From positions 1 to 64,000 of the forward strand of contig NZ_FPBK01000015.1 in assembly GCF_900116665.1 (NCBI RefSeq): a stretch of DNA of 64,000 bases, given 5' to 3'. The notes beneath the pieces are model-generated. The model ran no database searches. It worked only from the letters and a program-made list of their open reading frames with translations, and was not told where the DNA came from. Of this stretch, positions 102-55,915 are shown piece after piece (the stretch's first letter is position 1; each line of letters begins with the position of its first letter). The position numbers and the translations under genes are program-made. The DNA is from Pustulibacterium marinum. Lineage in GTDB: Bacteria; Bacteroidota; Bacteroidia; Flavobacteriales; Flavobacteriaceae.

Positions 102-866
102 TTATTTTTTATTATTAAAATCAAATTTGTAACCAAAACTCAAATTAAATGTTTGATTATAATATTTTTGAGGATTCGGTATTAAATCACCTCCATATGA
201 CTTTCCAAAACTTCTATTCCATATAAATTCAAGAATTAAATGATTTTTTTTGTTTGGAAGAAGGTAATTATATCCTATACCGACCAAAAATCCTTGCTCG
301 TTCTTATTTGCACCTCTGTCATTTGTATAGTCATATTTGTTTTCCGAAATTTTAATATCTCCTTTTTCCTTTGAGTTAATTAAATGTCCAAAGGTAAGTC
401 CACCAAGTATGTGTATTTCGTTTTGTTTTATGGGAAAATAGATTTTTAAAGGCAAATCAATTGTCCAGTAATTTTGAATCCATTTGATTGTTCCATCAAC
501 GTTTTCATATTCTTGAGTTTCACTATTCCAATGATTTGTTGCATTTATTTTTGAACCTTTTTGGATATAATTTGCTCCCAATCCTAAAGAAAGTCTTTTA
601 TTGAATCTAAATTCTATCAAACCACCTATGCTAACTCCGCTTTTTAGTTTCTTACTTGCTGGATTGTTTGCATAAAAATTTTCAGGTGAATCTCCATTTA
701 AAAAAGTTTCCGACTCTGCATCCTTTCCGTATTGATTTGCTAACATAAGTCCACTCTTAAAAGTGAAATCAAATCCCTTTTTTGTATCTTGTGCAAAGTT
801 GAAATTTGCAAATAAAATGGAAATGATTAAAGTTAGTAGTAGTTTGATTGTAAATTCCTTTTTCAT
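102..866 (-). CDS. outer-membrane beta-barrel protein (porin-like), signal peptide
   Basis: N-terminal signal peptide MKKEFTIKLLLTLIISILFANFNFAQ. Alternating amphipathic strands. C-terminus ends ...FGYKFDF, a typical terminal aromatic of OM beta-barrels. Confidence 0.55.
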   Translation of the reverse strand: MKKEFTIKLLLTLIISILFANFNFAQDTKKGFDFTFKSGLMLANQYGKDAESETFLNGDSPENFYANNPASKKLKSGVSIGGLIEFRFNKRLSLGLGANYIQKGSKINATNHWNSETQEYENVDGTIKWIQNYWTIDLPLKIYFPIKQNEIHILGGLTFGHLINSKEKGDIKISENKYDYTNDRGANKNEQGFLVGIGYNYLLPNKKNHLILEFIWNRSFGKSYGGDLIPNPQKYYNQTFNLSFGYKFDFNNKK

Positions 867-1750
867 AATTCAGTTTTTTAGATAGATACTCTTTTCTGAA
901 TAAAGTTGCGTCTAATTGCACACAACTCGTTTATATCATGAACAAGATATAACTTTTTACGCAATTTTAAATTTTTATTTCAAAAAAATCTTACAAACAG
1001 CCATCTAAAGACCATAGACATACACCTCCAAAAAGAGGAGTTTTGTATAAAAAGCATGGGGTTGGTTTCATCTCTTAGCTAAGGTCCAAAGGAATATCCC
1101 TCTGTATGTCGGGTTGGTTACCGATAGGCAGCACACATGCTAGGTGCTTATGGAAGCAAGTACATCGCTCTTAGAGCGAGGCTTCTTTGTTGCTAATACA
1201 ATAAAAACCAATACAGGAACTAAGATATAAAAAATGCAGCAATTGAAGATAGTTTGATAGCCGTACGCTCATTTCCCAAGGGGTTTGCTCCCAGTTTTGT
1301 TCCAGTCTTCCTTGGTAAAATGGCGTTTTCGTAAAGGAAACTCACCGTTTACTGCAACAACACTGCAACAAACACACCGGGGTGTTTTACGAAAATGTAA
1401 CAATTGGTCACGTTGGGTACATTTGAGTATCAGTACGTATGAACGGTAATAAAATGGTATCATACCCCACACATGGGTGCAGATTCCCACAGATATGCAC
1501 AAAATTGCACAAATTTGTAATGCTATTTCCAACAATTGCTACAAGTAACTGATATGTATTCCCTACCATAATACACTGGTTTTTAAATGAATTATCCATC
1601 AAATGGATCAAGGCTAAACTCCGTAAAACCTTGAAAATAAACAACCTACAAAAACATATCGGACACGTGCATTACAGTTGCGGACACTTCGTTTTAGTTA
1701 AAACGTTGATATACTGCATAGTAACCCAAACAAATCGGACACTTTAGTCA

Positions 1751-1880
1751 CGTTCTGTTACCGTTCTGTTACCGTTCTGTTACCATCCTGTAAGCGTTCT
1801 GTAAGCAAACACTATGCTCCCACTGCTCATCCTGTTACCAACCTTGTACCAACCTTCTGTATACCTTGTACCACTCCGTG
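1751..1880. repeat. iteron-like short direct repeats (cgttctgttac x3, then ctgtaagc x2 and ccttgtacca x3)
   Basis: Direct repeats read from the sequence: cgttctgttaccgttctgttaccgttctgttacc ... ctgtaagcgttctgtaagc ... ccttgtaccaaccttctgtataccttgtacca. Confidence 0.6.
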
Positions 1881-2175
1881 CTTTTTCTTTTGAGCTACTC
1901 TTACCACTTACTTTTTAGGTATATACAAACTGTATATTGAACATTTCCTTTGAGTTACACCTCAAAGTATCTCCTATAAGTATTTTGTAGTTAAGTATCC
2001 TCAATGAGCAACAAAATCATGATTAAGAACATGTACACTGGTGTATCCACTAGGTATGTTCTAATTGTTCATAAGGAAGATTGAATGAAAACAAACGGTT
2101 CATTGGATGTTTTCAACCGTTTGATTGAAAAGAAACACACGGGTGTTTTGAACAAAACGCACGTGCGTTTCTACA

Positions 2176-2215
2176 AAAACAGACGTCCGTTTTTTATAAA
2201 ACGGACGTCTGTTTT
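2176..2215. repeat. perfect 18-bp inverted repeat (aaaacagacgtccgtttt / aaaacggacgtctgtttt) with 4-nt spacer
   Basis: The right arm is the exact reverse complement of the left arm. It may be a protein-binding palindrome or a strong hairpin. Confidence 0.7.
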
Positions 2216-2350
2216 CAAGGGACTTTGGAAATAACAGTAAATAAAAGGTTTATCAAAGCCGTACCTAAAAGTAATAAAAAATATTGGATACATCATCATG
2301 CTACACTTTAATCTTGATTTCAATACCCCATGAAATTGAATATATATAAG

Positions 2351-3545
2351 GGGCAGTATCTCACCAACAAAACTAAAAATCTAATATACTAACACTCTAA
2401 ACTACTAGAAGAAACATTCAAAATAATAAAAAGGCTTCAGTACACTTTGCTCTATTGCATTCCGCAAAGCACTCAGCCACCGGAAAAGTAAACAGCTTTC
2501 AGCCATTAGCAGTCAGCCTTTAGCTGATAGTTGATAGATTCCGTATCACAGCACAGAATGACAATCGCATAATGCCTAAGTTTCAATTTTTGAATATACC
2601 GTCATCCTGAACTTGTTTCAGGATCTCACCAACAAATCTAAAAACCTAATATACTAACAGTCTAAACTACTAGAAGAAGCATTTAAAATAATAAAAGGCT
2701 TCGGTACACTTTGCTCCATTGCATTCCACAAAGCACTCAGCCACCGAGAGAGCAAAAAGATTCCGTGTCACAGCACGGAATGACAATCGCATAATGCCTA
2801 AGTTTCCATTTTTGAATACACCGTCATCCTGAACTTGTTTCAGGATCTCACTAACAAATCTAAAAATCTAATATACTAACACTCTAAACTACTAGAAGAA
2901 ACATTCAAAATAATAAAAAGGCTTCGGTACACTTTGCTCCATTGCATTCCACAAAGCACTCAGCCACCGGAAAAGTAAACAGCTTTCAGTCATTAGCAGT
3001 CAGCCTTTAGCTGATAGCTGACAGATTCCGTATCACAGCACAGATGACGGATATTTTAAAAGTGTTCAGTAAGCAGTTGCAGTAGGCAGTATCTCACCAA
3101 CAAAACTAAAAACCTAATATACTAACACTCTAAACTACTAGAAGAAACATTCAACATGTATAATTCAGCATTCAAAATAATAAAAAGGCTTCGGTACACT
3201 TTGCTCCATTGCATGCCACAAAGTACTCAGCCACCGGGAGAGCAAAAAGATTCCGTGTCACAGCACGGAATGACAATCGCATAATGCCTAAGTTTCCATT
3301 TTTGAATACACCGTCATCCTGAACTTGTTTCAGGATCTCACTAACAAATCTAAAAATCTAATATACTAACACTCTAAACTACTAGAAGAAACATTCAAAA
3401 TAATAAAAAGGCTTCGGTACACTTTGCTCCATTGCATTCCACAAAGCACTCAGCCACCGAGAGAGCAAAAAGATTCCATGTCGTGGCACGGAATAACGGA
3501 TAATTTATAAGTATTCAGTAAGCAGTAACAGTTTGCAGACTATCT
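2351..3545. repeat. tandem array (~5 copies) of a ~220-275-bp repeat in two alternating variants, each copy carrying conserved hairpins
   Basis: Unit starts (ctcacYaacaaaWctaaaaaYctaatatactaaca...) at ~2359, 2627, 2849, 3093 and 3338. Conserved hairpins are attccgtg-tcacag-cacggaat and atcctgaa-cttgt-ttcaggat. Variant A carries an extra ccggaaaagtaaacagctttcagYcattagcagtcagcctttagctgatag insertion. Confidence 0.85.
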
Positions 3546-3600
3546 ATAAACATATAAGACTTAAAACTGATAACTTCCAACGAATAACGAAACATACACC

Positions 3601-4176
3601 CTACAACATATCAGCAACAAACGCCTGTAGCTCAGTGAAAAAAGCAAAGAACTCCGTTTCAAAAGCATCGTAATGGGCTAGCAAACTGTCACCGGCAATG
3701 TCCAGTGCGCCTCTAAACTTGGTTTTGTGATGCATTTGTTTCAAAATGGTATCTATCCCTTCAATACTAGCATACATGACCAACCAATTGTATTGCAGCA
3801 TAGGTGGCATCAGTCGTAAAATTCGCGGAGGTAAAAGCGCTTCGTGTTCCTGTAAGCTTTTATAGAAATCAGCTGCATAAACATCCAGTGGAGTAGGGTG
3901 GAACTGTTCCCAGTGCTTAGCCAAAAAATGATCATAAAGCATGTCTACAATCACCCCGCTATAATGCCCGTGTACGGCATGGAGCTTCTTGGTACTTTGG
4001 CGTACAATGGGGTGCGCATCGGTATAAGTGTCTATAGCCCTGTGGAGTAGAATTCCTTTTTGAATATCCGGAGGGTAGGTTTGGTACTGTTTGCCTTTAA
4101 TACCGTCTGCAATAAAATTTCCTATGGTAAGTAGTTCATCCGCACCGGATAAATAGATATGGGCTAAGTAATTCAT
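3601..4176 (-). CDS. acpH: acyl carrier protein phosphodiesterase (AcpH family)
   Basis: The N-terminus MNYLAHIYLSG...NFIADGIKG... matches the AcpH signature (MNFLAHLHLA...). The ORF-track start at 4245 looks like an over-extension; the likely start is the MNYLAH Met. Confidence 0.7.
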   Translation of the reverse strand: MNYLAHIYLSGADELLTIGNFIADGIKGKQYQTYPPDIQKGILLHRAIDTYTDAHPIVRQSTKKLHAVHGHYSGVIVDMLYDHFLAKHWEQFHPTPLDVYAADFYKSLQEHEALLPPRILRLMPPMLQYNWLVMYASIEGIDTILKQMHHKTKFRGALDIAGDSLLAHYDAFETEFFAFFTELQAFVADML

Positions 4177-28332: not shown

Positions 28333-28728
28333 ATGAAAGATCATTTTCAAATCACTAAAAACTATGTATTAGAACTCAACTTTACTATAACTTACGAAAG
28401 CCGCGAAGAAGAAGTGCTGGTAGTACAAAAAGAAGCCTTTGGAATCAAAAACCTGATTATTGGTGTAGCAGCTCCTATATTAATTATGGAGCAGTTTATT
28501 TTCAACATCAACAGTCAAAACGAAAAGGTGTTCAGAAACCTGTTACAGAAGAATCGTGATATTATTCATGGAGCGTTTTGTTTAGATGAAAGTGGTAAAC
28601 GCGTTATTTTCAGAGATACATTACAAATTGAAAATTTAGACCTCAACGAACTCAAGGGTTCGCTAAACTCATTAAGTTTATTAATGAGTGAATACTCAGA
28701 TAAGATTATTGAATTCTCAAAATATTAA
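28333..28728 (+). CDS. hypothetical protein, possibly YbjN-like, first gene of a PspA-flotillin operon
   Basis: 131 aa, cytoplasmic, mixed alpha/beta. Its stop is 11 nt before the pspA-like start. The YbjN assignment is a weak guess. Confidence 0.4.
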   Translation: MKDHFQITKNYVLELNFTITYESREEEVLVVQKEAFGIKNLIIGVAAPILIMEQFIFNINSQNEKVFRNLLQKNRDIIHGAFCLDESGKRVIFRDTLQIENLDLNELKGSLNSLSLLMSEYSDKIIEFSKY

Positions 28729-28739
28729 AGCCATCGATT

Positions 28740-29450
28740 ATGAACCTATTTAAAAGACTATTTAAAATTGGAGAAGCAGAAGCAAATTCTGCTATAGATA
28801 AAATGGAAGACCCTATCAAAATGACTGAACAGGGAATCCGCGATATGAAACAAGATCTTGAAAAAAGCTTGGAGGCTTTGGCACAAGTAAAAGCCATGTC
28901 TATTCGTTCAAAAAATGAACAGGAAGAGTATCAAGATAAAGCAGCTGATTATCAAAGTAAAGCGATTTTAATTTTGAAAAAGGCTGAAAAAGGAGATATG
29001 GAAACTGCAGAAGCAGATAGATTAGCACAACAGGCATTGATCAAAAAACAAGAGTCAGATCAACAAGCTGAGCGTGCAAAATTAGAAGCTAGTAAATTTG
29101 ATGATTCCATTGCACAACTGGAGAAAAACATTCAGAATATAAAAGCAAGTATCAGCAATTGGGAAAACGAATTGCGTACGCTAAAAGCAAGAGTAAAAGT
29201 ATCCAATGCTACCAAAAACCTGAACAAGCAAATGGCAGAGATTGATAGCAGTAGTACCGTTTCTATGTTAGAACGTATGAAAGAGAAAGTAGCCCAGGAA
29301 GAAGCGTTGGCAGAAGCTTACGGAGATATTGCAAATACTTCTAAATCTGTAGATGACGAATTAAATGCAGCCGTAGATACTACCGAAGCAAAAGCTACAG
29401 ACGATTTAGCAAAATTAAAACAACAATTAGGACTTAATAAACAGGAGTAA
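28740..29450 (+). CDS. pspA: PspA/IM30/Vipp1 family protein (ESCRT-III-like)
   Basis: MNLFKRLFKIGEAEANSAIDKMEDPIKMTEQGIRDMKQDLEKS aligns with the E. coli PspA N-terminus ([43 protein letters not shown]). Entirely coiled-coil. 236 aa. Confidence 0.8.
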   Translation: MNLFKRLFKIGEAEANSAIDKMEDPIKMTEQGIRDMKQDLEKSLEALAQVKAMSIRSKNEQEEYQDKAADYQSKAILILKKAEKGDMETAEADRLAQQALIKKQESDQQAERAKLEASKFDDSIAQLEKNIQNIKASISNWENELRTLKARVKVSNATKNLNKQMAEIDSSSTVSMLERMKEKVAQEEALAEAYGDIANTSKSVDDELNAAVDTTEAKATDDLAKLKQQLGLNKQE

Positions 29451-29452
29451 CC

Positions 29453-30163
29453 TTGAGCAACATAGGTCATATTATATTTTCAGAGGTAAATATAACCCTT
29501 ACCATTCTAATGCTTTTGCTGATCGTCTATTGGATTTTAACCATGGTCAGCGGCATTGACTTTGACTACGATGTAGACATCGATATAGATTTGGATGTAG
29601 ACGTAGATGCAGATGCGGGCATAGAAGGTGGAAATATGGATTTTCAGGATATCTCAAACGCAGAGGTAGACAAAGAGCAAGTAATAGGCAACAGAAGACA
29701 ACCGCTAAAGTGGTGGCAAATTGTGCTCATCTATTTCAACTTTGTAGGGCTACCATTTATGTTCACCTTTACCGCCTGGATTTTTATCTGGTGGTTTGCA
29801 ACAGTACTCATTACCAAATTAACGGGTAGCTATGAAAATGCCTTTGGCTTTGTAGTGATGCTTGGAGCCATGATTCCAGCATTGTTTGTTACCAAAATAT
29901 TTACAACTCCTTTTAAAGGATTCTTCAAGAATCTAAATAAAGACGGCGACAAGGCTGTGGAATATTTGGGCAGAACCGGAATCATGTTGTCTAGTATAGA
30001 AGGTGAACGCATGGGAAATGCCGAAGTCACAATCAACGGAGATTCGTATAACATTTATGTAAAGTCGTTAGACGGATCACCCTTGAAATACCAACAAAAA
30101 ATATTAATCATCAACCAGTCTGCAGACAAGAACTCTTTTCTTGTTCAGGCGTATAACAACTAA
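29453..30163 (+). CDS. NfeD-like (YqiJ-like) membrane protein with C-terminal OB-fold and an acidic (D-V/I)n tract
   Basis: Three TM helices. A DFDYDVDIDIDLDVDVDADAG acidic repeat lies after TM1. The C-terminal beta-rich GNAEVTINGDSYNIYVKS...KILIINQSADKNSFLVQ is typical of the NfeD OB domain. Starts 3 nt after the pspA stop and lies immediately upstream of the flotillin gene, as in yqiJK-type operons. Confidence 0.7.
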   Translation: MSNIGHIIFSEVNITLTILMLLLIVYWILTMVSGIDFDYDVDIDIDLDVDVDADAGIEGGNMDFQDISNAEVDKEQVIGNRRQPLKWWQIVLIYFNFVGLPFMFTFTAWIFIWWFATVLITKLTGSYENAFGFVVMLGAMIPALFVTKIFTTPFKGFFKNLNKDGDKAVEYLGRTGIMLSSIEGERMGNAEVTINGDSYNIYVKSLDGSPLKYQQKILIINQSADKNSFLVQAYNN

Positions 30164-30179
30164 ATAACTTTAATAACCA

Positions 30180-32270
30180 ATGGGAGAAATTTTATCAATT
30201 ATCGGAATGGGTGTAGGGCTTGTTCTGTTTTTGATAGTGGTATATTTTGCCATTATCGCAATGTTTTACAAAAAGGTACATCAGGGACAAGCCTTGGTAC
30301 GTACCGGATTTGGAGGAACCAAAGTAGCAACCGACAAAGGTTTGTACGTGGTGCCGGTTTTCCACAGAGTGGAAGTAATGGATATTTCAGTAAAGAAAAT
30401 TCAAATTGAACGTTTATCGCACGAAGGCTTAATCTGTAAAGACAACATGCGTGCAGATATCAAAGTAGCATTTTTCGTTCGTGTCAACAACGATGTTAAT
30501 TTTATAAAGAAAGTAGCGCAAACCATTGGGGTTGCGAGAGCTTCTCGTATAGAAACTTTGGAAGATTTGTTTGAAGCAAAATTCTCAGAGGCCTTGAAAA
30601 CCGTAGGGAAAAAGTTCGATTTTATTGAATTGTACGAAGCACGTCGTGAATTCCGTGATGAGATTGTAGACATCATCGGTACCGATTTAAACGGATATAC
30701 CTTAGAAGATTGTGCTATTGACTTTTTAGAGCAAACGCCTATTTCGCACTTAAAAGCTGATAACATTTTAGATGCAGAAGGTATTAAAAAGATCACGGAG
30801 CTTACGGCAAATCAAAATGTAAAAGCCAACTTAATCAAACGTGATGAAGAGAAAACCATTCGCAAGCAAGATGTCGAAGCACGCGAAGCGATTCTGGCGT
30901 TAGACAAACAATTGGCTGAAAAAGAAGAGCAACAAAAACGTGAGATTGCCAACATCAAGGCTCGTGAAGAAGCAGAAACCTTGAAAGTAGCCGAAGAAGA
31001 GCGTTTAAAATCAGAATCTGCAAGAATTGCTACGGAAGAAAAAGTAAAAGTAGCCGAAGAAAACATGCAACGTCAAATCATTGTAGCTGCTAAAAATAAA
31101 GAGCGTACCAATGCTATTGAAAACGAGCGTGTAGAAAAAGACAGAATGTTAGAAGCTACCGAAAGAGAACGCGTGGTAACACTGGCTCAGATAGAAAAAG
31201 AGAAAGTAGTAGAGGTAGAGAAGAAGAACATTCAAGATGTGATCAGAGACCGCGTGATGTTAGAAAAAGGCGTGGTAGAAGAGCAAGAAAGCATGAAAGA
31301 TATTGAAGCTTTCAAAACTGCTGATCGTGAGAAGAAAGTGAAGATTACCAATGCCGAAGCGAAAGCGCAGGAAGAATTGATCAAAACTATCAAAGAAGCT
31401 GAAGCGAAGAAAGAAGCAGCAAAACAACGTGCCGAAGAAATCAATATCGAAGCAATGGCGCGCAAAGAAGCCAGCGAAAAAGAAGCCGAAGCACGCAAAA
31501 CATTGGCAGAAGCCAAAGCGAAAGAAGAAGCCATTATTGGTATGTCTGAAGCGCAGGTAATGCATGCAAAAGCAGATGCTAGCGAACGTCAGGGAATTGT
31601 AGATGCATCGATCATTGAGAAGAAAGCAAAAGCCGAAGCTGCAGGAATCGAAGCAAAAGCACAAGCCGAATTGAAAGAAGGAAAAGCACAAGCCGAAGTT
31701 ATCAAAGACAAAGCCTTGGCCGATGCTGCCGGAATTGAAGAAAAAGCGGCTGCCATGAAGAAACTAGACGGTGTTGGTAAAGAACATGAAGAGTTCAAAC
31801 TACGTTTAGATAAAGAATTACAGGTAGACTTGGCAAACATTAATATTCAAAAAGAGATTGCAGACGCACAAGCCTTGGTATTGAGCGATGCCTTGAAAAA
31901 CTCGAAAATTGATATTGTGGGTGGAGAAACCATGTTCTTCGATCAAATTGTTGGACAAATTACCAGAGGTAAAGGAATCGACAGATTGGTACAGAACAGT
32001 GAAAACATTCAGCAAGTAAAAGATTCTATCTTAGGCAGCGATGACATTCAGGGAAACTTACTTGAAAAAGTAAAAGAGTTTTCTGCTAAGTATGGCATCT
32101 CTTCAGAAGACCTAAAGAACTTTACCATCGCTAATTTGTTGATGGATCTTAAAAAGAAATCTAACAGTGACAAAGAACACACCATGTTCAACAATTTGTT
32201 AAACCTGGCACAAGGCTTAGGATTGTCCGATAAAACTGTTGGAAGTATCAAAAGAGAACATTTAAAATAA
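30180..32270 (+). CDS. flotillin / SPFH (band-7) family protein, YqiK/FloT-like, extended
   Basis: N-terminal TM helix. The SPFH domain is ...ALVRTGFGGTKVATDKGLYVVPVFHRVEVMDISVKKIQIE.... A long EA-rich coiled coil follows (KAREEAETLKVAEEERLK...AEAKAQEEL...) and a C-terminal flotillin tail. 696 aa, longer than typical bacterial flotillins. Confidence 0.85.
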   Translation: MGEILSIIGMGVGLVLFLIVVYFAIIAMFYKKVHQGQALVRTGFGGTKVATDKGLYVVPVFHRVEVMDISVKKIQIERLSHEGLICKDNMRADIKVAFFVRVNNDVNFIKKVAQTIGVARASRIETLEDLFEAKFSEALKTVGKKFDFIELYEARREFRDEIVDIIGTDLNGYTLEDCAIDFLEQTPISHLKADNILDAEGIKKITELTANQNVKANLIKRDEEKTIRKQDVEAREAILALDKQLAEKEEQQKREIANIKAREEAETLKVAEEERLKSESARIATEEKVKVAEENMQRQIIVAAKNKERTNAIENERVEKDRMLEATERERVVTLAQIEKEKVVEVEKKNIQDVIRDRVMLEKGVVEEQESMKDIEAFKTADREKKVKITNAEAKAQEELIKTIKEAEAKKEAAKQRAEEINIEAMARKEASEKEAEARKTLAEAKAKEEAIIGMSEAQVMHAKADASERQGIVDASIIEKKAKAEAAGIEAKAQAELKEGKAQAEVIKDKALADAAGIEEKAAAMKKLDGVGKEHEEFKLRLDKELQVDLANINIQKEIADAQALVLSDALKNSKIDIVGGETMFFDQIVGQITRGKGIDRLVQNSENIQQVKDSILGSDDIQGNLLEKVKEFSAKYGISSEDLKNFTIANLLMDLKKKSNSDKEHTMFNNLLNLAQGLGLSDKTVGSIKREHLK

Positions 32271-32387
32271 GGGTTGGGGAATCCTGTTGCATGTTACGCC
32301 TGGCCTCCGGGTTGGGAGTAGCATGCTATATTTTGAATGTGAATACTAACAGGAAACTTTTAAAATCGAAAGTTTCCGTTTACCGTT

Positions 32388-35300
32388 ATGAATTTACGTA
32401 TGCAAGAAGAAGATAAAAAACAACCTGATGCGCAAGTGCTCGAAGGCGGAACCTATGAGATTATTCAGGGCCGTTTGCAAAAGCAAAAGCAGGATCTTCA
32501 GCAACGCTTACAACGGTTAAATGAAGATCGTAAAAAGGTATTTGGTTCGTTAGAAACCAAACTGTTGGCCAACAATCGCGTCAGTACAGAAAACAATTGT
32601 ATTACCCGCGACATTGTTACCATAGAATCCTATTGCATTTTTGGCTATAATGTGCATTTCGGACTGCGAACAGAGATTACACTGTCCGATGTGTTCAGTA
32701 TTTATCAGTACCAGGAGCAGCAATTTAAAACGGTGGATTTATCGTTGTTACAAGACGAAACCTTTATCACCGATTTTACGAATCTTTATAAATACTATCG
32801 CAATACCATATTTGCTAAGTTCTCTGTTATTGGGAATTACCTCTATATGGTGTTTCAATTAAGCGATAGTGTAACCGATATCAAAGCGTTTAAATGGTTG
32901 ATCAAAGATGGGCAATTGCACTACATTGACAACCGAAGCGACCATGAGGTAAAATATCCTGCGCAGCACGAATTTAAATGGTTGGAAGCAGGCCGCGATA
33001 ATCAGCGTTACGGCGAACATGCCCATGTTTCCATTTTAGATAAGGTTTTTGTAGAAACCATTGGTGGCGATCTTACCATTAAGGTGGAAGACAATACCAA
33101 CGACGGACAAGGGATTTATTCCGAACCTGTTGAAATGGTAGATCAAACCCTGGATGACGGACAATTCCGTTATGCAGACTTGGGTAACTTGATTGCATTA
33201 GAGATCAAACCCTTTCAGGAGGCACCCCGCTATTTTGTCTACAATCACAAGATCAAAGAGGTGCAAAAGATTGAGAGCATCAAGGAAGCCGCCATCTTAT
33301 TACCGGACGAACAGGGGATTATTTTCCCGAATGGCTATTATTTACAAACCGGAGAGTATCAGGTTTTTGATAGCGATACCGATAACCTGAAGTTTTTAAA
33401 ACGCATTGCTTCGCCAAATGGGGAAGATTACCTGTTTGTGTTCTACGGAGCTGCTTTGGGCACTTATGTCCTCATGCAATACAACGTTATTGAGCAAACC
33501 GTGCAAACACCTATCATTTGTAATGGTTTTACCATTCATGGGAATGGTGAATTGTGCTACTTTAAACAGGAAGAAGAGCAAACCAAACACCACATGATGC
33601 AGATTTGGCAAACACCTTTCTTAAAAGGAGATATTATGCCGTCTCAGCATCAAGATACCTTGTTGTACAAGATAGGGAATAAGGATATTGTGCGTGCTAT
33701 GGCCGAGTCTCAGGAGTTGATCAACTTGTTAAGCAAAGAAGATTCCTATAGCGGATTGTATGCAGACATTGCCAAGCTTTCCAAAGACATTTTAGATGCC
33801 TATTATTGGTTAACGGAGGAAGAAACCCAGCAATTAAAACTGCCCTTAGCAGAGATCAACAAAGCTGCGAATGCCGCTATTGATGAGTTTGCCAAAGTGG
33901 TACAATTAAAGAAGACTGCCGGAAAAGAAACCGAAGTATTACAAGGCAAAGCCGATGCTGTTTTTGGCAAGGTGAAAAGCACTTCCTTTAAATCGATTGA
34001 CGATTTTGTGTTGTTGCTCAACCAATTGCGAACATTGCGTGGCGAAGCCATTGGTTTGTACGAGATCAGGTATGTAGATACGCAATTTATCAAAGGGATA
34101 GAGGAAGAAATCGCCGCACATACCCAAAAAATATCAGAGCGTTGTGTGCAGTTTTTGCTAGACGACAAAGCTTTGGCTCCATATCATGAAAGAGTAGCCG
34201 AAAAAGAGCAGCACTTAGCCGAAATTCACAAAGTAATCGATGCTAAAAAGCTGGAAGAAGAGGTAAATCAGATTGCGAACGATCTGGAGATGTTAATCGA
34301 TATTGTTTCCAATCTTTCTATTGAAGATACTTCGCACTCTACCAAGATTATTGACAATATTTCGTTGATTTTCGCCACTTTAAATCAGTTAAAGGCGGGC
34401 ATTAAAAACAAACGCAAGTCACTGGGTAGCAAAGAAGCCAAAGCCGATTTTGTAGCACAGTTAAAACTGGCCGATCAAAGTATCATCAATTACTTAGATA
34501 TTGCTGATACGGTGGAGAAGTGTGATGAATTTCAAACGAAGATCACCATTCAGTTAGAAGAGCTGGAAGGGAAGTTTGCCGATTACGAAGAATTCATTGC
34601 ACAGATCATTGAAAAGCGCGAAGAGGTGTACAATGCCTTTGAAGGCAGAAAAACCGCCATTGCAGAAAAGCGTAACAAAAAGAGTTTAGCGCTGGAGAAT
34701 GCCGCCGATCGTATTTTAAAAGGAGTTGACAAACGAGCGCAAAGCTTGGGCAGCAACACCGAGATCAATGGGTATTTTGCTTCGGATTTAATGGTGAACA
34801 AGTTGCGCGATATTGTGCAGCAGTTAAAAGAATTAGACGATACCGGAAGGGCCGAAGAAATAGAAACCAAGCTAAAAGTGGCCCGCGAGGATGCCTTACG
34901 CAAGTTAAAAGACAAACTTGAGTTGTACGAAGACGGTGATAAGGTGATCAAGTTTGGGAAACATAAGTTTGGGGTTAACAAGCAGGTGTTAGACCTTACC
35001 ATTGTGTACAAAAATAATAGTTTGCAGTACCATTTAACCGGAACCGACTTTTACGAAACGGTAACCGACAAAACCTTGTTGAATTCCCGCCAGTTATGGG
35101 AACAGGAATATATTTCGGAGAACAATGCCGTGTATCGTAGTGCCTATTTGGCGTATAAATTGTTTACCAGCATTCCTTCCGAAGTCTTGGAAAACGCTAC
35201 TTCCGAAGAATTGTTAAAGATAGTGCAGGAAGAGAGCAGCAGTAATTATTCCGAAGGGTATATCAAAGGCGTGCACGATGTTGATGCAGCCGCTATTTTG

Positions 35301-37274
35301 GAAACCTTGGTGAAAAAGCATGCCAAATTGGGCTTGTTAAGCTTTGATCCGCAGGTGAGAGCCGCTGCACAATTCTTTTGGCATAGTTTAGATACCGAAG
35401 TACAACAGAATTATGACGAATTACTCAAAGCTTCGGGCGCTGTACTCAGCATTTTTCCGGAGTCTAGAGAGTATGAGTTCTTATTGTTAGAGCTTACAGA
35501 TTATATAGCTGATTTTTCGGTGGAATCTGGTTTGTTTGCTGAAGAACTCAGCGCTGAGGTGGCTACGTATTTGTTTGACGAACTCAAAACTGATGCTACG
35601 TTTATGGTCAGTGGCGATGCTTTGAAGCTAAAAGAAGATTTTCTAAAAGCTTTACAAAGCAAACAGGCCGACCTTCAGTTTAGAAACAGTTATGAGAAGC
35701 TCAGCAACTTTGAAGCGCAGGTACGTTTGGTGCGCCAATGGGTAACTTCCTTCATCAAATCGCATCAAAATGAATATGATGTGGCGTATGCTGATGAGGT
35801 GGTGTGTACTTTGTTGTTTGATACCAAAGCGGTACAGAAAAACACCTATGCGCCAGCCACTACGGTGATAGAAGGACTGAAGGGAGACCATGCCAGCATT
35901 AACGATGGTGTGTATGCGTTCAATTACCATGCGTTCACGCGTTTGTTGGCTACGTATGTGGCCGAAACAGTGCCGGCATTTCAGGAATTTAAAAAGGCAA
36001 AACACGAAGTCACCGAAACTTTGAAAGCCGAACTGAAATTACAAGAGTTAAAACCTAGAGTATTGACGTCTTTTGTGCGTAACAAGCTCATAGACCAGGT
36101 ATACTTGCCGTTGTTTGGCGATAATTTGGCCAAACAATTGGGTACGGTGGGCGATAACAAACGTACCGACCGTATGGGAATGCTCTTATTACTGTCGCCA
36201 CCCGGATACGGAAAAACAACCTTGATGGAATACATGGCCAACCGTTTGGGCTTGGTGTTTATGAAGATTAACGGACCCGCTATTGGTCATGAAGTAACCT
36301 CGGTAGACCCGGCATCGGCTACTAATTCTGCGGCACGCGAAGAGTTAAAGAAACTCAACCTTGCTTTAGAGATGGGCAACAATGTAATGCTGTATTTAGA
36401 TGATATTCAGCATTGCAATCCGGAGTTTTTACAGAAGTTTATTTCGCTTTCCGATGGTACCCGTCGTATAGAAGGGGTGTACAAAGAGAAACCCAAAACC
36501 TACGACCTGCGTGGGAAGAAGTTTTGTGTAATTATGGCCGGAAACCCGTATACCGAAAGCGGTGAAAAGTTCCGTATACCCGATATGTTGGCCAACCGTG
36601 CCGATATTTACAATCTGGGTGACATTATTGGCGATACCGCACATTTGTTTAAACTTAGTTTGATAGAGAATGCGTTGACATCGAACCCGGTGTTGCAGCA
36701 ATTGAGCAGTAAGTATTTTGACGATGTGTACAAATTGCTAGATAAGGTAGAAAACAAAAATCTGGAGGTGCAACTAGAGGGCAACCACACCACGCAAGAG
36801 ATAGAAGAGTACGTAGCGGTGATAGAAAAGGTGGTTACCATACGCAATACGGTGTTAAAGGTGAACGAAACCTATATAAAATCGGCTGCGATGGAAGACG
36901 AATACCGTACCGAACCTTCGTTTAAACTGCAAGGCTCGTATAGAGATATGAACAAACTGGTAAGCAAGGTAGTACCTATTATGAATGAGGCCGAATTGCA
37001 GCGCCTGTTGCTATCGCATTACGAGAGTGAGTCGCAAACCTTAACCTCGGCTGCCGAAGCCAACCTGTTAAAGTACAAAGAACTCATAGGTGAGCTCAAT
37101 ACCACCGAGCAAGACCGTTGGGACAGTATTAAAGTAACGTTTCAGAAAAACAACAAGCTCAAAGGCTTTGGAAACCAAAACGAAATGGCACAAGTACTTA
37201 CCCAAATGATGGCTTTTACCGATAATCTGGAAGGCATTAAAAAAGTATTAGAACAAGGACTCAAAAACGAGTAA
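32388..37274 (+). CDS. giant (1,628-aa) multidomain protein: aromatic/Cys-rich N-terminal globular region, ~800-aa coiled coil, C-terminal AAA_5 (MoxR/dynein-like) P-loop ATPase
   Basis: Walker A LLLLSPPGYGKTTL (nt ~36200-36223). Walker B VMLYLDDIQ. Sensor-1 FCVIMAGNPYTE. A putative Arg finger in IPDMLANRADIY. This pattern matches AAA_5/MoxR (DEINRA...ATQNP). Residues ~430-1230 are heptad-rich and helical. Residues ~60-420 are rich in Y/F/W/C (ESYCIFGYNVHFG, ICNGFTIHGNGELCYF). A strong terminator follows. Confidence 0.75.
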   Translation: MNLRMQEEDKKQPDAQVLEGGTYEIIQGRLQKQKQDLQQRLQRLNEDRKKVFGSLETKLLANNRVSTENNCITRDIVTIESYCIFGYNVHFGLRTEITLSDVFSIYQYQEQQFKTVDLSLLQDETFITDFTNLYKYYRNTIFAKFSVIGNYLYMVFQLSDSVTDIKAFKWLIKDGQLHYIDNRSDHEVKYPAQHEFKWLEAGRDNQRYGEHAHVSILDKVFVETIGGDLTIKVEDNTNDGQGIYSEPVEMVDQTLDDGQFRYADLGNLIALEIKPFQEAPRYFVYNHKIKEVQKIESIKEAAILLPDEQGIIFPNGYYLQTGEYQVFDSDTDNLKFLKRIASPNGEDYLFVFYGAALGTYVLMQYNVIEQTVQTPIICNGFTIHGNGELCYFKQEEEQTKHHMMQIWQTPFLKGDIMPSQHQDTLLYKIGNKDIVRAMAESQELINLLSKEDSYSGLYADIAKLSKDILDAYYWLTEEETQQLKLPLAEINKAANAAIDEFAKVVQLKKTAGKETEVLQGKADAVFGKVKSTSFKSIDDFVLLLNQLRTLRGEAIGLYEIRYVDTQFIKGIEEEIAAHTQKISERCVQFLLDDKALAPYHERVAEKEQHLAEIHKVIDAKKLEEEVNQIANDLEMLIDIVSNLSIEDTSHSTKIIDNISLIFATLNQLKAGIKNKRKSLGSKEAKADFVAQLKLADQSIINYLDIADTVEKCDEFQTKITIQLEELEGKFADYEEFIAQIIEKREEVYNAFEGRKTAIAEKRNKKSLALENAADRILKGVDKRAQSLGSNTEINGYFASDLMVNKLRDIVQQLKELDDTGRAEEIETKLKVAREDALRKLKDKLELYEDGDKVIKFGKHKFGVNKQVLDLTIVYKNNSLQYHLTGTDFYETVTDKTLLNSRQLWEQEYISENNAVYRSAYLAYKLFTSIPSEVLENATSEELLKIVQEESSSNYSEGYIKGVHDVDAAAILETLVKKHAKLGLLSFDPQVRAAAQFFWHSLDTEVQQNYDELLKASGAVLSIFPESREYEFLLLELTDYIADFSVESGLFAEELSAEVATYLFDELKTDATFMVSGDALKLKEDFLKALQSKQADLQFRNSYEKLSNFEAQVRLVRQWVTSFIKSHQNEYDVAYADEVVCTLLFDTKAVQKNTYAPATTVIEGLKGDHASINDGVYAFNYHAFTRLLATYVAETVPAFQEFKKAKHEVTETLKAELKLQELKPRVLTSFVRNKLIDQVYLPLFGDNLAKQLGTVGDNKRTDRMGMLLLLSPPGYGKTTLMEYMANRLGLVFMKINGPAIGHEVTSVDPASATNSAAREELKKLNLALEMGNNVMLYLDDIQHCNPEFLQKFISLSDGTRRIEGVYKEKPKTYDLRGKKFCVIMAGNPYTESGEKFRIPDMLANRADIYNLGDIIGDTAHLFKLSLIENALTSNPVLQQLSSKYFDDVYKLLDKVENKNLEVQLEGNHTTQEIEEYVAVIEKVVTIRNTVLKVNETYIKSAAMEDEYRTEPSFKLQGSYRDMNKLVSKVVPIMNEAELQRLLLSHYESESQTLTSAAEANLLKYKELIGELNTTEQDRWDSIKVTFQKNNKLKGFGNQNEMAQVLTQMMAFTDNLEGIKKVLEQGLKNE

Positions 37275-40804: not shown

Positions 40805-41025
40805 ATAAGCGATCACTTTTTTGGCTAAAGCGATCACTTTTTTGGCTAAAGCGATCACTTTTTTGGCTAAAGCGATCACTTTTTCGGCTAAAGCGATCAC
40901 TTTTTTGACTAAAGCGATCACTTTTTTGGCTACAGCAATCACTTTTTTGACTAAAGCGATCACTTTTTCGGCTACAGCAATCACTTTTTTGGCTACAGCA
41001 ATCACTTTTAAGCCTAAAGCACTTC
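40805..41025. repeat. 21-bp tandem minisatellite (agcgatcacttttttggctaa)n, ~10 copies with point variants
   Basis: Read directly. The units vary at three or four positions (g/a, t/c, g/a, a/c). Both strands yield artefactual heptad-repeat ORFs (KKVIALA / AITFLAK). Confidence 0.85.
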
Positions 41026-41438
41026 TTTTTTACTGTACTACTACCTATGCTAGCAGTGTGTTGTTACTACGTAGTATTCTTATATATATAGACCAATTTC
41101 CCCGTGAAGAAATTGTGATGAAAATACAAAGTGGATGCTGCTATACAATCGTTTTTGCATCCATCTGCATAGCGTTGGGGAGTGGGCTATGTAAGGTTCG
41201 TAATGTTAACCTGTCAGTAAGTGTTTGACAGTTAATGTATTATTTTCTCAATATATAACTTTTTTTTATACGATTTACATGGCATTTAAAAAAAAGTAAA
41301 AAAATACGTAGGGTGCTAAGGGTAGGGCTAGGGTAGCTCGTGTGGCTTTTAGTGGAACCATCTGTAGACATAGCTACTAACAAAAACCCCTCATATATTA
41401 CTTACATGAGGGGTTGGTATAGGGTATCCTTGTTAGGA

Positions 41439-42593: not shown

Positions 42594-44375
42594 TCACTCC
42601 ACGTGGTAATGTCTTAGGGCATGTTCTTGTTGCCTGTGACTGCTAAAGCTAGAGACTCTTTTTAGGTAGCCAATAATGCGAGTAGCATGGTCTATGTCTT
42701 TAGATTCGCAACTAGGGCAGCGGTGCAAGGTACGTTTGTCTATGGTGCCACAGGTGTTGCAAATGGTGATTTTTACGTTGAAACAAAAATAGTTGCATCC
42801 GGCTTTGGCAGCAGCGGTGATGAGTTTTAAAAATCCGTGGGCATTGGGGTAGGCTTCGAGGTTTAAATGCAAGGCCGATCCGCCATCTAAATAGGCAATC
42901 ATGTCTTTGCCGTGCAAAAACATTTTGTCGAGGATGTTTAGTTCTTCATTTTCTACTGGATAGAAGTACGAATTGTAACAGTCTCGTTGCACTTGGTAAC
43001 CGTCTTCTTTATCCCAACGGGCATTTTTAACGCCTAGGTTTTCCGCCGGAACAAATTCAGTATTGAATAAATATCCATAAGTAGCTTTGGCTTCTTTATT
43101 GGCGTTGTAGATTTTCTGTAACTGATGGCGCACAAAATCTTTATAATCCGGATTATTAGTAGCGGCAATGCCTAGGCTTTCGGCAGCTTCTACCATTCCG
43201 TTAACACCAATGGTTAGAAACTGTTTGTCTAAATGAATAAATCCGGCATCGTAGACAGGGAGCATTCCAGCATTTTTGTAAGATTCTATTAGTTTTCTAT
43301 ACGCTACTTGGTATTTATGAATCTTTTTAACCTCTACGCCCAAGTCTTTTCCTTGTTGTAGCATTCGGTTTACATTCATGGTAATCACGTTGATAGAACC
43401 TGTAGCCACGCCACCAGCTCCTAAGGAATAACTAAAGGTGTTGTCGGCAATTTCATTACGCAATCTACAGCAAGACGCCAAACTATCGGCACTTTCTGAT
43501 TGATAAATGAAGAACGAATTACCTTCGCTAAGTTCTTTGGCACAAAACTGCGCAAAATGGGTGTCGGCAGGTTGTCCCTCTTTAATCAGCATGGCCGCTG
43601 TGACTACCGGAAAGGTGAGGAGTGCTTTGTTTCGTTCGGCATTGAACCACTCCATAAAGAAGCGTTGCAAAGCAGCCAGACTTTCCCAGTTAGGTCGGGT
43701 TCCGTTCGGGAACACAAAATCTTGAAACATGCTTTCAAAATAGAAACTATCATAAATAGAGATGTTCCAAAAAACCGATTGGTAGCCACGGGCCGCTGCT
43801 GGTTGGTTAATGGCATACACTACGTGTTGCAAATGGTTTGCTATGGTGGTAGTATTGGTGGTTAAGTAGGCATCACCATAGTCTTTTCGGGCAAAAAAGT
43901 CAAAATATAATAAAAACTCAACCGTTGCTAAGGCTCCGGCAAATTGTGAGCTTACAGCAAACACCAAATTGACAAACTCTCCGCAAAAGCTTTCCAAATG
44001 TTGCGGTGCTTTGCTTTCGCCTCCAATTTTGGTGAGTCCGTCTAACAAAAACGGATACATGCTAATAGAAACGCAGTAGGGTTTTAAAGAGGTTTCGTCA
44101 TGTATGTAGATTTCGTGGTTTTCTATTTGTCGCAAGTATTCCTGAGCCAGTTCACTGCCAAACAATTCGGCAATTTTGTTGTGTACCAATTGTCGGTTTA
44201 CTTGTATGTTAATGTCTTTGTTCAACTCGGCCTCCATCGTGGCAATGTTCTTCGAGGTAACATTGGCGTTGGCGTCTACGCTAGAGCCATCGGCAGCGTT
44301 GTTGGCTTGTAAATACTGTTCAATAAACGCAATCTTTTTATTGACTTGTTCGGTGCTTAATCTTATCATGAGCAA
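42594..44375 (-). CDS. nrdD: anaerobic ribonucleoside-triphosphate reductase (class III RNR)
   Basis: The C-terminal zinc ribbon is CNTCGT...CPSCES. The glycyl-radical motif is ATRIIGYLKRV (RxxGY). 593 aa. Confidence 0.8.
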   Translation of the reverse strand: MLMIRLSTEQVNKKIAFIEQYLQANNAADGSSVDANANVTSKNIATMEAELNKDINIQVNRQLVHNKIAELFGSELAQEYLRQIENHEIYIHDETSLKPYCVSISMYPFLLDGLTKIGGESKAPQHLESFCGEFVNLVFAVSSQFAGALATVEFLLYFDFFARKDYGDAYLTTNTTTIANHLQHVVYAINQPAAARGYQSVFWNISIYDSFYFESMFQDFVFPNGTRPNWESLAALQRFFMEWFNAERNKALLTFPVVTAAMLIKEGQPADTHFAQFCAKELSEGNSFFIYQSESADSLASCCRLRNEIADNTFSYSLGAGGVATGSINVITMNVNRMLQQGKDLGVEVKKIHKYQVAYRKLIESYKNAGMLPVYDAGFIHLDKQFLTIGVNGMVEAAESLGIAATNNPDYKDFVRHQLQKIYNANKEAKATYGYLFNTEFVPAENLGVKNARWDKEDGYQVQRDCYNSYFYPVENEELNILDKMFLHGKDMIAYLDGGSALHLNLEAYPNAHGFLKLITAAAKAGCNYFCFNVKITICNTCGTIDKRTLHRCPSCESKDIDHATRIIGYLKRVSSFSSHRQQEHALRHYHVE

Positions 44376-44820
44376 TGAATAAATGATTTAACTTTTTTCC
44401 TGTGGAAACTTCAATAAATTGTTGATTGGTTTTGGTATTGTTAAGTCCGCCCAGGTTTGGTATCCATGGACCAAGCTTTACGTAGGTAAGTTGTTGTAAT
44501 ATCATTGGGGCTACGGAGTTTTCTCCGGTATATAAACAGGTAGCATAGCCTAGTTGGCGTGCTTCTTTTAAATAATTGATAAGCGTTTCGGGGTGCCATT
44601 CGCCTCCCATAAAGAGTATACAACTGGCAAAACCCTGGTATTGTTGTAAAAGTTTTTGATAGTGGGGCGCAGTTAATAGTTTTCCGGATCCTGCTTTCCA
44701 GGTATGTGGCGAATGGCAGCCCATACAGCGTAACGGACAGCCCGTAATACTGAAACACAGACTGATTTCGCCCGGAACTTCTTGATGAACAACATCTATA
44801 TGTGCATACCGCATTGGCAT
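44338..44820 (-). CDS. nrdG: anaerobic RNR activating protein (radical SAM)
   Basis: CPLRCMGCHSPHTW (CxxxCxxC) close to the N-terminus. Overlaps the nrdD start. The likely start is MPMRY (the ORF track extends to 44880). Confidence 0.75.
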   Translation of the reverse strand: MPMRYAHIDVVHQEVPGEISLCFSITGCPLRCMGCHSPHTWKAGSGKLLTAPHYQKLLQQYQGFASCILFMGGEWHPETLINYLKEARQLGYATCLYTGENSVAPMILQQLTYVKLGPWIPNLGGLNNTKTNQQFIEVSTGKKLNHLFIAHDKIKHRTSQ

Positions 44821-44896
44821 AACGCTACTTTTGCTTTTTGAAACCTTATTGACCGCAAGCCATGCATTATCCCGAAACATGAATTGCTACTGTAAT

Positions 44897-45055
44897 AAGG
44901 CAGGTCTTCTGACTTGCATAAGCTTTGGCGTCTTCCCACCCTTATTAAAAGGATAGTGACAACAGTAGAGGCCAAGCTTTGTGATAGCTTACAGCTGCGG
45001 GAACAGTTTGGGAGTTACACCCAATTCCCTTTTCATTTAACACCCCCGAAAAGAG
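44897..45055 (-). ncRNA. cobalamin (AdoCbl) riboswitch upstream of nrdG-nrdD
   Basis: The minus-strand sequence reads aaaagggaattgggtgtaactcccaaactgttcccgcagctgtaagc...gtcactatcc...gggtgggaagacgccaaag...agtcagaagacctgcc. It shares the conserved GGGAA, GGTG, CCCGCAnCTGTAAG, B12-box-like and AGNCAGGAGACCTGCC elements with the second riboswitch at 55.7 kb. Confidence 0.75.
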
Positions 45056-45262
45056 CTGTTAAAACCTTACTACAGCTTAAAGATACAAACTAAAAAAGCC
45101 GGGGCGTTTCTAATAGGGATGGAGTTATAAACCGAGTTGTAAACAGTAGCGTCAATTTCTTTGGCCACAAAGAGTTATCCCTTTTCCAGAAAACGAGTCA
45201 ATGATTTTTGTTAGATTTCAGGAGTAGTGAGGTGTTTTTTATAAAAGTATGGGTTAAGCTTG

Positions 45263-55486: not shown

Positions 55487-55729
55487 GCAGTAAAGGTAAA
55501 AAAAACAAAAACTAACAAATGTCATTTTTAACTATAACGTTTTCGTTTACTTTTAAATAAAATTTAATGGTTATGCTAAGCGACGAAAAATACATTATGG
55601 TAACCGTGCTATTTTATATTATACTGCTTTTTTTTATTTTCTTAATCATGAAAATTACTGATAAAGAAGCGCACTAAATAGTAAGTGTTCATAGGTACAC
55701 AATACAGATATATTGTGTACCTTTGCCGA

Positions 55730-55915
55730 GAATTCGGGTTCTGAAGAAACCACAATTCAGGTTCACAGATTAAAAGGGAATTCGGTGTAATACCGAAGCT
55801 GTTCCCGCAACTGTAAGCGACGTTTTATTGATTGAAACGGTGTTTGTAACTACTTTGCCACTGGAGTTTTTCCGGGAAGGTAACAAACATACGCAAGCCA
55901 GGAGACCTGCCCGCA
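55730..55915 (+). ncRNA. cobalamin riboswitch upstream of a btuB-like TonB-dependent receptor
   Basis: ...ttaaaagggaattcggtgtaataccgaagctgttcccgcaactgtaagcgacg...ttgccactggagtttttccgggaaggtaacaa...caagccaggagacctgcccgc. Contains a canonical B12 box (GCCACTG), CCCGCAACTGTAAG and AGCCAGGAGACCTGCC. Confidence 0.85.

Follow-up and report, generated by a model that had tools for sequence, protein, structure and literature searches.

The superfamily of CGTC-tagged repetitive extragenic palindromes (REPs) was described by Di Nocera, De Gregorio & Rocco (2013, BMC Genomics 14:522; PMC3733652). Its members carry an unpaired terminal tag, CGTC or the variants TGTC and CCTC, at one end of a palindrome with a stem of 8–9 bp (complementary A-T at the first and second positions) and a loop of 4–5 nt, albeit other loop lengths occur in some families, and they end with an unpaired tail of 3 nt, the consensus of which is CCA (PMC3733652). 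These REPs lack an associated transposase and are present in Bacteroidetes, for instance in G. forsetii; they mostly occur as dimers, and clusters are rare except in Neisseria, in which the dRS3 element is a CGTC-1 REP, and in Wolbachia (PMC3733652). In the mosaic elements between the genes of Neisseria (NIMEs), dRS3 (ATTCCC-N8-GGGAAT) forms arrays with repeat sequences (RS) that are typically ~50–150 bp long (range 19–214) and produce a G+C wave (Bentley et al. 2007, PMC1797815). NIME arrays have been described as unseen outside Neisseria. Here we analysed 64,000 nucleotides of the marine flavobacterium Pustulibacterium marinum (contig NZ_FPBK01000015.1, positions 1 to 64,000; hereafter the window), which contain a tandem array of hairpin-bearing units at 2352–3553. 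This array is probably a cluster of CGTC-tagged REPs, similar to NIMEs or to the bacterial interspersed mosaic elements (BIMEs), that was locally amplified together with a long spacer, designated module A below.

Unit structure and hairpins of the array

The array comprises five head-to-tail units and the degenerate start of a partial sixth one (~3539–3553), as recognised by Tandem Repeats Finder, a repeat search, alignment and a segment map. In the repeat search of the window, the units started at 2352, 2617, 2839, 3085 and 3329, being spaced by 265, 222, 246 and 244 nt, and their lengths (222–265 bp, n = 5) are not kept as multiples of three throughout the array. The original prediction, which was made from the sequence of the window, had placed five head-to-tail copies at 2351–3545. 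The number of copies and the start are borne out, but the end lies further to the right, at ~3553, with the partial sixth unit.

Within a unit, module A is followed by a segment of 54 or 14 nt, hairpin 1 and a tail of either of two types. Module A is a 125-nt core shared by every unit, and its pairwise identity of 93.5–100% agrees with the >90% identity initially proposed for the copies. The segment map and the comparison of copies place it at 2358–2482, 2623–2746 (with a 1-nt deletion in the A-run), 2845–2969, 3091–3236 (with a 21-nt insertion at 3148–3168, recognised in the alignment) and 3335–3459, the third and fifth copies being identical to each other. Its first half is AT-rich (21–29% GC) and its second half GC-richer (46–60% GC), and a G+C wave runs periodically along the array in the segment map. 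The A-rich tract expected in each copy is indeed present in all five units, together with GGCTTCGGTAC.

Alignment and a motif map revealed that the units are modular mosaics with two independent dimorphisms. The first follows module A, where units 1 and 3 have a 54-nt segment rich in palindromes and heptads (2484–2537 and 2971–3024), and units 2, 4 and 5 have a 14-nt segment instead. The second concerns the tail, which in units 1, 2 and 4 is composed of a 36-nt spacer, X (2564–2599, 2786–2821 and 3276–3311), and hairpin 2. In units 3 and 5, the place of both is occupied by the Y link (3049–3089 and 3498–3538), a tract of CAGT heptads (TTCAGTA AGCAGTT GCAGTAG GCAGTAT) found by repeat search, alignment and the segment map. 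The 54-nt segment accounts for the ~55-bp insertion of the original prediction, but the two variants described there do not alternate cleanly, as the two dimorphisms are independent. Similarly, the two 8-bp hairpins assigned to each copy exist, but both are intact in only two of the five units: atcctgaa/ttcaggat occurs just three times (from 2600, 2822 and 3312), and of the five copies of attccgtg/cacggaat only those of units 2 and 4 are perfect, the others being degenerate. Tracts of CAGT heptads (CAGTAGCAGTTTTCAGT...) like those of the Y link (3060–3089 and 3509–3538 in the window) were also seen in another flavobacterium, in a metagenome-assembled genome (MAG) of Lutibacter flavus (L149:5600–5961), where they sit inside a 122-nt tandem array.

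The two hairpins are two versions of one design set in opposite orientations. Hairpin 2 (REP2) reads CGTC-ATCCTGAA-CTTGT-TTCAGGAT-CTC on the plus strand, and hairpin 1 (REP1) reads TGTC-ATTCCGTG-CTGTGA-CACGGAAT-CTT on the minus strand. Both stems, ATCCTGAA/TTCAGGAT and ATTCCGTG/CACGGAAT, are of 8 bp and begin with AT, as do the stems of the superfamily. All three copies of REP2 are tagged with CGTC, while the tag of REP1 is TGTC in units 1, 2 and 4, CGTC in unit 3 and CGTT in unit 5; both hairpins are thus tagged in the manner of the superfamily. The tails have the expected 3 nt (CTC in REP2 and CTT in REP1), and tails of CTC, CTA and CCA all occur on identical copies of REP2 in other genomes. 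The loop of REP2 (CTTGT, 5 nt) is within the norm, and that of REP1 (CTGTGA, 6 nt) is one nucleotide over. REP2 therefore agrees with every feature of the CGTC REPs that was examined, and REP1 agrees with all but the loop length.

REP2 was mapped on the plus strand at 2600–2627, a canonical CGTC-type REP with exact matches elsewhere, and at 2822–2849 and 3312–3339. On the minus strand, REP1 is intact in unit 2 (2760–2785), where CTTTTTG follows and makes it terminator-like, and in unit 4 (3250–3275), where a U-tract follows on that strand; both scored as terminator-like in addition to being placed on the segment map. The copy in unit 1 (2538–2563) is degenerate, with two transitions in the stem that leave G.U pairs only on a minus-strand RNA, and the copy in unit 3 (3025–3049), identified by alignment and the segment map, is degenerate and has a 1-nt deletion. 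Unit 5 has a variant followed by a U-tract (3473–3498), which, at a distance of 107 nt, comes first among the hairpins downstream of the stop codon of acpH. In the terms of PMC3733652, REP2, module A and REP1 form a head-to-head (HH) pair with the tags outside, and REP1, the X spacer and REP2 form a tail-to-tail (TT) pair with the tags inside.

No frame longer than 42 aa is open in the array, and the whole tract of 867–3600 is free of open reading frames (ORFs) that would make a convincing gene, in accordance with the gene-free nature proposed at the outset. Pfam scans covered the ORFs of ≥120 aa across 1–58,856 (hereafter the scanned ORFs) and short ORFs between 1269 and 2323; the large ORFs at 59135–60256 and 60574–63372 and the array's own short ORFs lie outside these scans. 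Across module A, a minus-strand frame (…RWLSALWNAMEQSVPKPFYYFECFF) stays open in each of the five units, as might be expected if the array consisted of small-peptide genes or were an internally repetitive coding sequence that has decayed. Nevertheless, the units differ in the start codon of this frame or lack one, every one of its five substitutions is non-synonymous and a frameshift affects unit 2, so that the frame is not a coding one, and a small-peptide gene in module A was rejected on these grounds. The unit lengths, as mentioned above, do not preserve a reading frame, and the ORF fragments at 867–2350 yielded nothing at or above the curated cut-off of Pfam, the only hits being weak ones (E = 0.016 and 0.088). 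We consider a coding origin of the array scarcely credible.

A CRISPR array, discounted in the original prediction too, was likewise rejected because the long segments between the hairpins are conserved at 93.5–100% and thus are not unique spacers; no cas gene was found among the scanned ORFs. Integron attC and dif sites were also considered and rejected, since neither R'/R'' cores nor an integrase was found on inspection.

Dispersal of REP2 and probable amplification of the units

The distribution of REP2 extends far beyond the window, and across other genomes it is clearly multi-copy. Exact copies of the 27-mer CGTCATCCTGAACTTGTTTCAGGATCTC lie in at least 120 stretches of genomes that represent species of many phyla, and their flanks are unrelated every time. 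GTCATCCTGAACTTGTTTCAGGATC(TC) is likewise exact across phyla, in genome loci ranging from 29 to 60% GC and in viral contigs (L001–L002, L011–L032 and L059–L178, taken together). Among the matches listed, the hosts belong to Bacteroidota (including Winogradskyella, Lutibacter, Psychroserpens, Christiangramia and Pedobacter), Alphaproteobacteria, Patescibacteria/CPR (candidate phyla radiation), Spirochaetes, Melainabacteria, Elusimicrobia, Firmicutes, Desulfobacterota and others. A 25-mer of REP2 is found exactly in 22 viral contigs of 28–71% GC, again with unrelated flanks. When two units were searched by distant BLAST, the sole plasmid match was to 26 nt of REP2, at 100% identity, in eight sphingomonad plasmid records, and similar hairpins with compensating changes in the stem lie near REP2 in these plasmids. 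Perfect hairpins of the GTCAT-stem-loop-stem type numbered 224 in 854 kb of genome loci, against 0–1 in shuffled sequence. No paper turned up when the literature was searched for the sequence of the hairpin. That an identical 27-mer occurs in so many phyla is relevant to how CGTC REPs, for which no transposase is known, spread or persist, and it may be of more interest to specialists than the array itself.

About half of the REP2 copies elsewhere have an inverted partner 5–112 nt away, and two MAGs contain further tandem arrays with the same REP2. That of a Pedobacter MAG (L128:68–334) has a period of 94 nt and 2.8 copies, and that of a Gastranaerophilales MAG (L116:5800–6262) has a period of ~211 nt and at least two copies of 92–96% identity, along with a palindrome, CCCTCCC..GGGAGGG. 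Segments that include a REP have thus been repeated in tandem in unrelated genomes as well.

Module A was found only at this locus within the data searched. No part of the array has a copy outside it in the 64-kb window. Among 185,579 species genomes, none matched a 21-mer of module A; the JGI metagenomes contained neither a 26-mer nor a 21-mer of it, and module A was also unmatched in the comparison loci that were fetched. Against viral contigs, an 18-mer gave six matches only, with no likeness beyond the seed; the X spacer gave none, and a 17-mer of the heptads gave 26, about the number estimated for chance. Dispersed copies, which the original prediction had proposed to look for in the rest of the genome, were absent from the 64-kb window, and the collections searched held no homologue on which covariation, its other proposed test, could be measured. 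Units occurring only here were the outcome that the prediction had itself set against a functional RNA, and that reading is weakened accordingly.

Several observations argue for local amplification rather than repeated insertion. First, all eight REP copies of the window fall inside the array. Second, Tandem Repeats Finder detected a higher-order period of 490 nt (2.3 copies over 2354–3459); this super-repeat is 97% identical between 2693–2988 and 3183–3478, and it is accompanied by the identity of the third and fifth copies of module A. Third, the array ends with a partial unit, and the variant sites in the copies of module A are scattered in a mosaic pattern. The starting unit would have been an inverted REP pair (REP2 on the plus strand and REP1 on the minus strand) around module A, which, with ~36 nt of flanking DNA, was probably reiterated in tandem via unequal recombination or replication slippage, the copies being reshuffled later through gene conversion and indels. 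As DNA, the array would be prone to recombination and unstable in copy number but otherwise largely neutral. We infer that the array has no dedicated gene-like function.

The features shared with the CGTC superfamily include not only the C/TGTC tag, the AT-first stem of 8 bp, the short loop and the 3-nt tail, but also inverted partners, G.T pairs in stems, the absence of an associated transposase (for the array, among the scanned ORFs), and a site downstream of an ORF and between unidirectional genes (PMC3733652). Unlike the bulk of the superfamily, the REPs of the array are clustered, their outward-tagged spacer is 132–175 nt instead of the usual 20–100, REP1 has a loop of 6 nt, and the tails are CTC and CTT instead of CCA (PMC3733652).

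In architecture, NIMEs appear to be the closest analogue. As in NIMEs, palindromes of ~20 bp and the ATTCC...GGAAT type alternate with AT-richer segments (36 nt and 132–175 nt), and the array is intergenic, variable between relatives and adjacent to a gene for a surface protein. On the other hand, NIMEs usually mix many RS families that are dispersed genome-wide, whereas here we found a single family, module A, in five copies, and no recurrence of multiple RS families within the window and the collections searched. NIMEs are also associated with a phage or recombinase that targets dRS3, but no gene for either was detected among the scanned ORFs, and the host belongs to Bacteroidota; the array would thus work like a NIME without being a member of that class.

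The BIMEs of E. coli resemble the array in their REP hairpins of alternating orientation, their conserved linkers, their tandem arrangement and their location in 3' untranslated or intergenic DNA, but BIME REPs are tagged with GTAG and linked to REP-associated tyrosine transposases (RAYTs), and their period is tens of bp, not 222–265 bp. An inverted REP pair around a conserved spacer, as a potential non-autonomous unit, is also reminiscent of the REP doublets forming hairpins (REPINs) of the REPIN/RAYT systems, which are reportedly those of Bertels and Rainey (2011). The tags of REPINs are, however, GTAG rather than CGTC/TGTC; the copies in the array stand in tandem instead of being dispersed, their spacer is far longer, and no RAYT (Y1 transposase domain) was found among the scanned ORFs.

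Some observations fit a REP cluster less well. The 6-nt loop of REP1 departs from the family norm of 4–5 nt and was shared by only one of the 224 comparable hairpins elsewhere, and the exact sequence of REP1 had no match in the viral contigs. The HH spacer of 132–175 nt is longer than all 66 HH spacers around REP2 elsewhere (5–112 nt) and exceeds the typical 20–100 bp, and clustering has been described as rare for CGTC REPs outside Neisseria and Wolbachia (PMC3733652). Module A looks like an intergenic module of a terminator plus a promoter, which would also suit an array of small-RNA genes, considered below, and within P. marinum the finding that module A occurs only here covers just this 64-kb window. 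The strand argument presented in the next section consists of three substitution events (p about 0.125) and thus carries small statistical weight.

Even so, a locally amplified REP cluster accounts best for the array, which is fairly ordinary repetitive intergenic DNA and not a new genetic system. Of the possibilities raised in the original prediction, a stack of terminator- or REP-like elements turned out to be essentially right, as both hairpins fit the CGTC REP and three copies have a minus-strand U-tract. The hairpin superfamily and tandem REP clusters as a phenomenon are known already; what is new, modestly, is the clustered, NIME-like organisation in a flavobacterium and the unusually long orphan spacer. 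If the array is what we propose, its significance is chiefly one of annotation: such stretches should be recorded as REP clusters, and labels such as candidate RNA gene or CRISPR-like array should be avoided. It would also provide a clear example of clustered, NIME-like CGTC REPs in a marine flavobacterium, and a compact natural case of a REP pair and its spacer being amplified and then diversified, as displayed by the 490-bp super-repeat, the indels and the gene conversion.

Minus-strand features and the small-RNA alternative

The gene next to the array on the right is acpH, encoding acyl carrier protein (ACP) phosphodiesterase (3601–4176, minus strand). The 3' end of the gene faces the array, so that any transcript reading through from acpH would contain the array's minus strand. 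On this strand, three REP1 copies with CTTTTTG score as terminator-like, and all three substitution events in the REP1 stem keep a G.U pair in the minus-strand RNA while giving an A.C mismatch on the plus strand. The degenerate copies thus still fold on the minus strand through the G.U pairs retained there: REP1 of unit 1 is predicted to fold at -7.0 kcal/mol on the minus strand and to form no hairpin on the plus strand, and REP1 of unit 5 at -8.3 and -6.3 kcal/mol, respectively. A hairpin predicted in module A, with a T-run after it, is likewise well formed on the minus strand alone (-17.5 vs -9.7 kcal/mol). In a REP cluster at this position, the REP1 hairpins with U-tracts would most likely act as redundant terminators or 3'-end stabilisers of acpH read-through RNA. 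Both roles, termination and 3'-end protection, are long-standing hypotheses about REPs and BIMEs (PMC3733652).

The same strand would also be the one used if the array were a series of independently transcribed small-RNA genes with one promoter per unit, an alternative that we regard as unlikely. Each unit has a minus-strand match to TAnnTTTG, the consensus of the -7 box of Bacteroidetes; TAGATTTG at 2855–2862 is one of these sites, and the others are at 2368–2375, 2633–2640, 3101–3108 and 3345–3352. According to this alternative, the -7 box in module A would direct an RNA of ~95 nt consisting of a 5' REP2 hairpin, a single-stranded 'seed' of 36 nt (X) and a terminator made of REP1 and its U-tract. 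Units of the Y type would give a longer variant, and module A would contribute a second terminator-like hairpin to insulate neighbouring units.

Several findings are consistent with such a cassette. The motif is perfect in all five units, and on the minus strand its position is immediately upstream of REP2; the sole substitution inside it hits an 'n' position (TAGATTTG vs TAGTTTTG). REP1 with CTTTTTG scores as a minus-strand terminator, the G.U-preserving substitutions in REP1 point to a constraint on a minus-strand RNA, and the minus strand folds into three hairpins with an exposed linker. Nevertheless, the motif is weak evidence of a promoter, as TAnnTTTG occurs 113 times in the window (~1 per 1.1 kb per strand) and no -33 TTG is present at the usual spacing. 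Rfam 15 had no match to the array at the gathering threshold, and at E ≤ 10 it returned a single chance-level match to a long non-coding RNA (E = 9). The folding z-scores are just -1.5 to -2.2 and arise from the REP hairpins themselves. The complete cassette is found in only two of the five units, the best complementarity of the spacer within the window is at chance level, and the lack of a homologue in the collections searched leaves no conservation or covariation to support the cassette. The G.U pairing would be equally expected from mere read-through RNA of acpH. The 'array of small structured RNAs' that the original prediction had listed first thus gained no positive support from the Rfam searches, from the z-scores of about -2 or from the promoter-like motif, which is common.

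If small RNAs were nonetheless made here, the REP hairpins might have been recruited as the framework for a family of small-RNA genes multiplied in tandem, each complete unit being a self-sufficient minus-strand cassette, a scenario that we hold to be quite doubtful. Such a family would be the first small-RNA array described from CGTC-type REPs, in a phylum with a poorly known small-RNA biology.

Genomic context and other features of the window

On the left of the array, the nearest gene (102–866, minus strand) encodes an outer membrane protein (OMP) β-barrel, named 'opacity protein-like surface antigen' in the JGI records; the array lies 1.5 kb upstream of this gene. Both AcpH and this OMP show 100% identity to proteins of P. 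marinum, which belongs to the Flavobacteriaceae. Likeness to relatives stops 48 nt past the acpH stop codon on one side and ~45–77 nt upstream of the OMP start codon on the other, so that 944–3553 is orphan DNA at a synteny break. In Neptunitalea chrysea, the AcpH of which is 74% identical, the glmM side is syntenic, but a peptidase gene follows acpH after 49 nt and the array is absent. In another relative (87% identical), a contig of 1.9 kb extends 126 nt past acpH, and only the first ~48 nt of these align. Homologues of the OMP with 78–89% identity are present in many metagenome contigs (loci L179–L187). Those of 78–83% are found in quite different gene contexts, and in one lineage sampled independently five times (L180–L184) the homologue lies 55 nt downstream of a transposase of the IS3 family. 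The IS3-adjacent homologues suggest that the OMP gene travels with mobile DNA. The transposase and the neighbouring proteins of these contigs had no match in 867–3600 when compared by tblastn.

This context raises the question of whether the array is a NIME-type recombination array that promotes exchange or relocation of the neighbouring OMP gene. The ATTCC...GGAAT palindromes, the AT-richer segments of 36–175 nt and the periodic G+C wave would be in keeping with it, as would the OMP gene on the left, the differing contexts of its homologues, several of which directly follow an IS3-family transposase, and the synteny break exactly at the array. However, genes for recombinases, transposases and phage proteins were not found among the scanned ORFs, the OMP gene lies at a distance of 1.5 kb, with the stack of putative terminators described below in between, and the recombinase role is merely a hypothesis in Neisseria itself (PMC1797815). 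A recombination array serving the OMP gene is, in our view, rather improbable.

It is far less probable that the array serves a mobile element, whether integrated or former, as a centromere-like site, an iteron or an origin, which would correspond to the partition site suggested in the original prediction. The long ORF-free tract (867–3600) at a synteny break, the 11-nt-periodic repeats at 1740–1873 and the regular spacing of the array repeats are features that such a site could share. Nevertheless, units of 222–265 bp far exceed known iterons or parS sites. The Pfam scans identified no transposase, RAYT, integrase, Par (ParA/ParB), Rep, relaxase or phage gene among the scanned ORFs, which are ordinary chromosomal genes. 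DnaA boxes are not enriched in the window (14 found vs 21 expected) and none lies in 867–3600, and the matches in plasmids and phages are confined to the REP2 hairpin. The chromosomal origin, oriC, was rejected as a candidate on the same count of DnaA boxes; the GC skew is uninformative in this respect because the tract is too close to the window edge. We thus regard the partition, iteron and origin readings, as well as that of a coding relic, as effectively excluded. Neither a tRNA nor a transfer-messenger RNA was found.

Between the promoter region of the OMP gene and the array, ~1.4 kb of orphan, ORF-free DNA (944–2350) has neither homology to relatives nor an Rfam hit at the gathering threshold. 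Part of it (1740–1873) is periodic at 11 nt, with CGTTCTGTTAC repeated ~4.7 times and followed by units like CCTTGTACCAA, and looks like phased protein-binding sites. Closer to the array (2089–2215), three or four palindromes flanked by A/T follow one another (AAACAAACGGTT..AACCGTTTGATT, AAACACACGGGTGTTT, AAACGCACGTGCGTTT and, at 2176–2215, an inverted repeat of 18 nt without mismatches). They look like bidirectional intrinsic terminators that would separate the array from the upstream tract. Small RNAs in Rfam gave weak matches to this stretch, the best of them with E = 1.6e-4 and a score well short of the gathering one; terminator mimicry probably accounts for them.

Elsewhere in the window, two cobalamin riboswitches were identified, at 44882–45084 on the minus strand and at 55719–55928 on the plus strand (111 and 106 bits, respectively). 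The former is upstream of genes for anaerobic ribonucleotide reductase, namely an activase-like ORF with a Fer4_12 domain (44338–44880) and NrdD (42594–44375), and the latter is upstream of a gene for a TonB-dependent receptor (55828–57786), next to a transporter with FecCD, ABC and periplasmic-binding components. At 40807–41020, a 21-nt unit (AAGCGATCACTTTTTTGGCTA) is repeated in tandem 10.2 times with 90% matches. These repeats overlap the start of an ORF of 135 aa (40821–41228) without a Pfam match, and they may encode heptapeptides or represent a non-coding array. Finally, a plus-strand cluster at 28333–37274 encodes a CesT_Tir_1-like protein, PspA/IM30, an uncharacterised protein of 236 aa, an SPFH/Band-7 protein (696 aa) and an ATPase of 1628 aa with DUF3686, DUF7902 and AAA_5 domains. 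The G+C content of this cluster (~40–42%) is above that of its surroundings, and the cluster may be a stress- or defence-related island.

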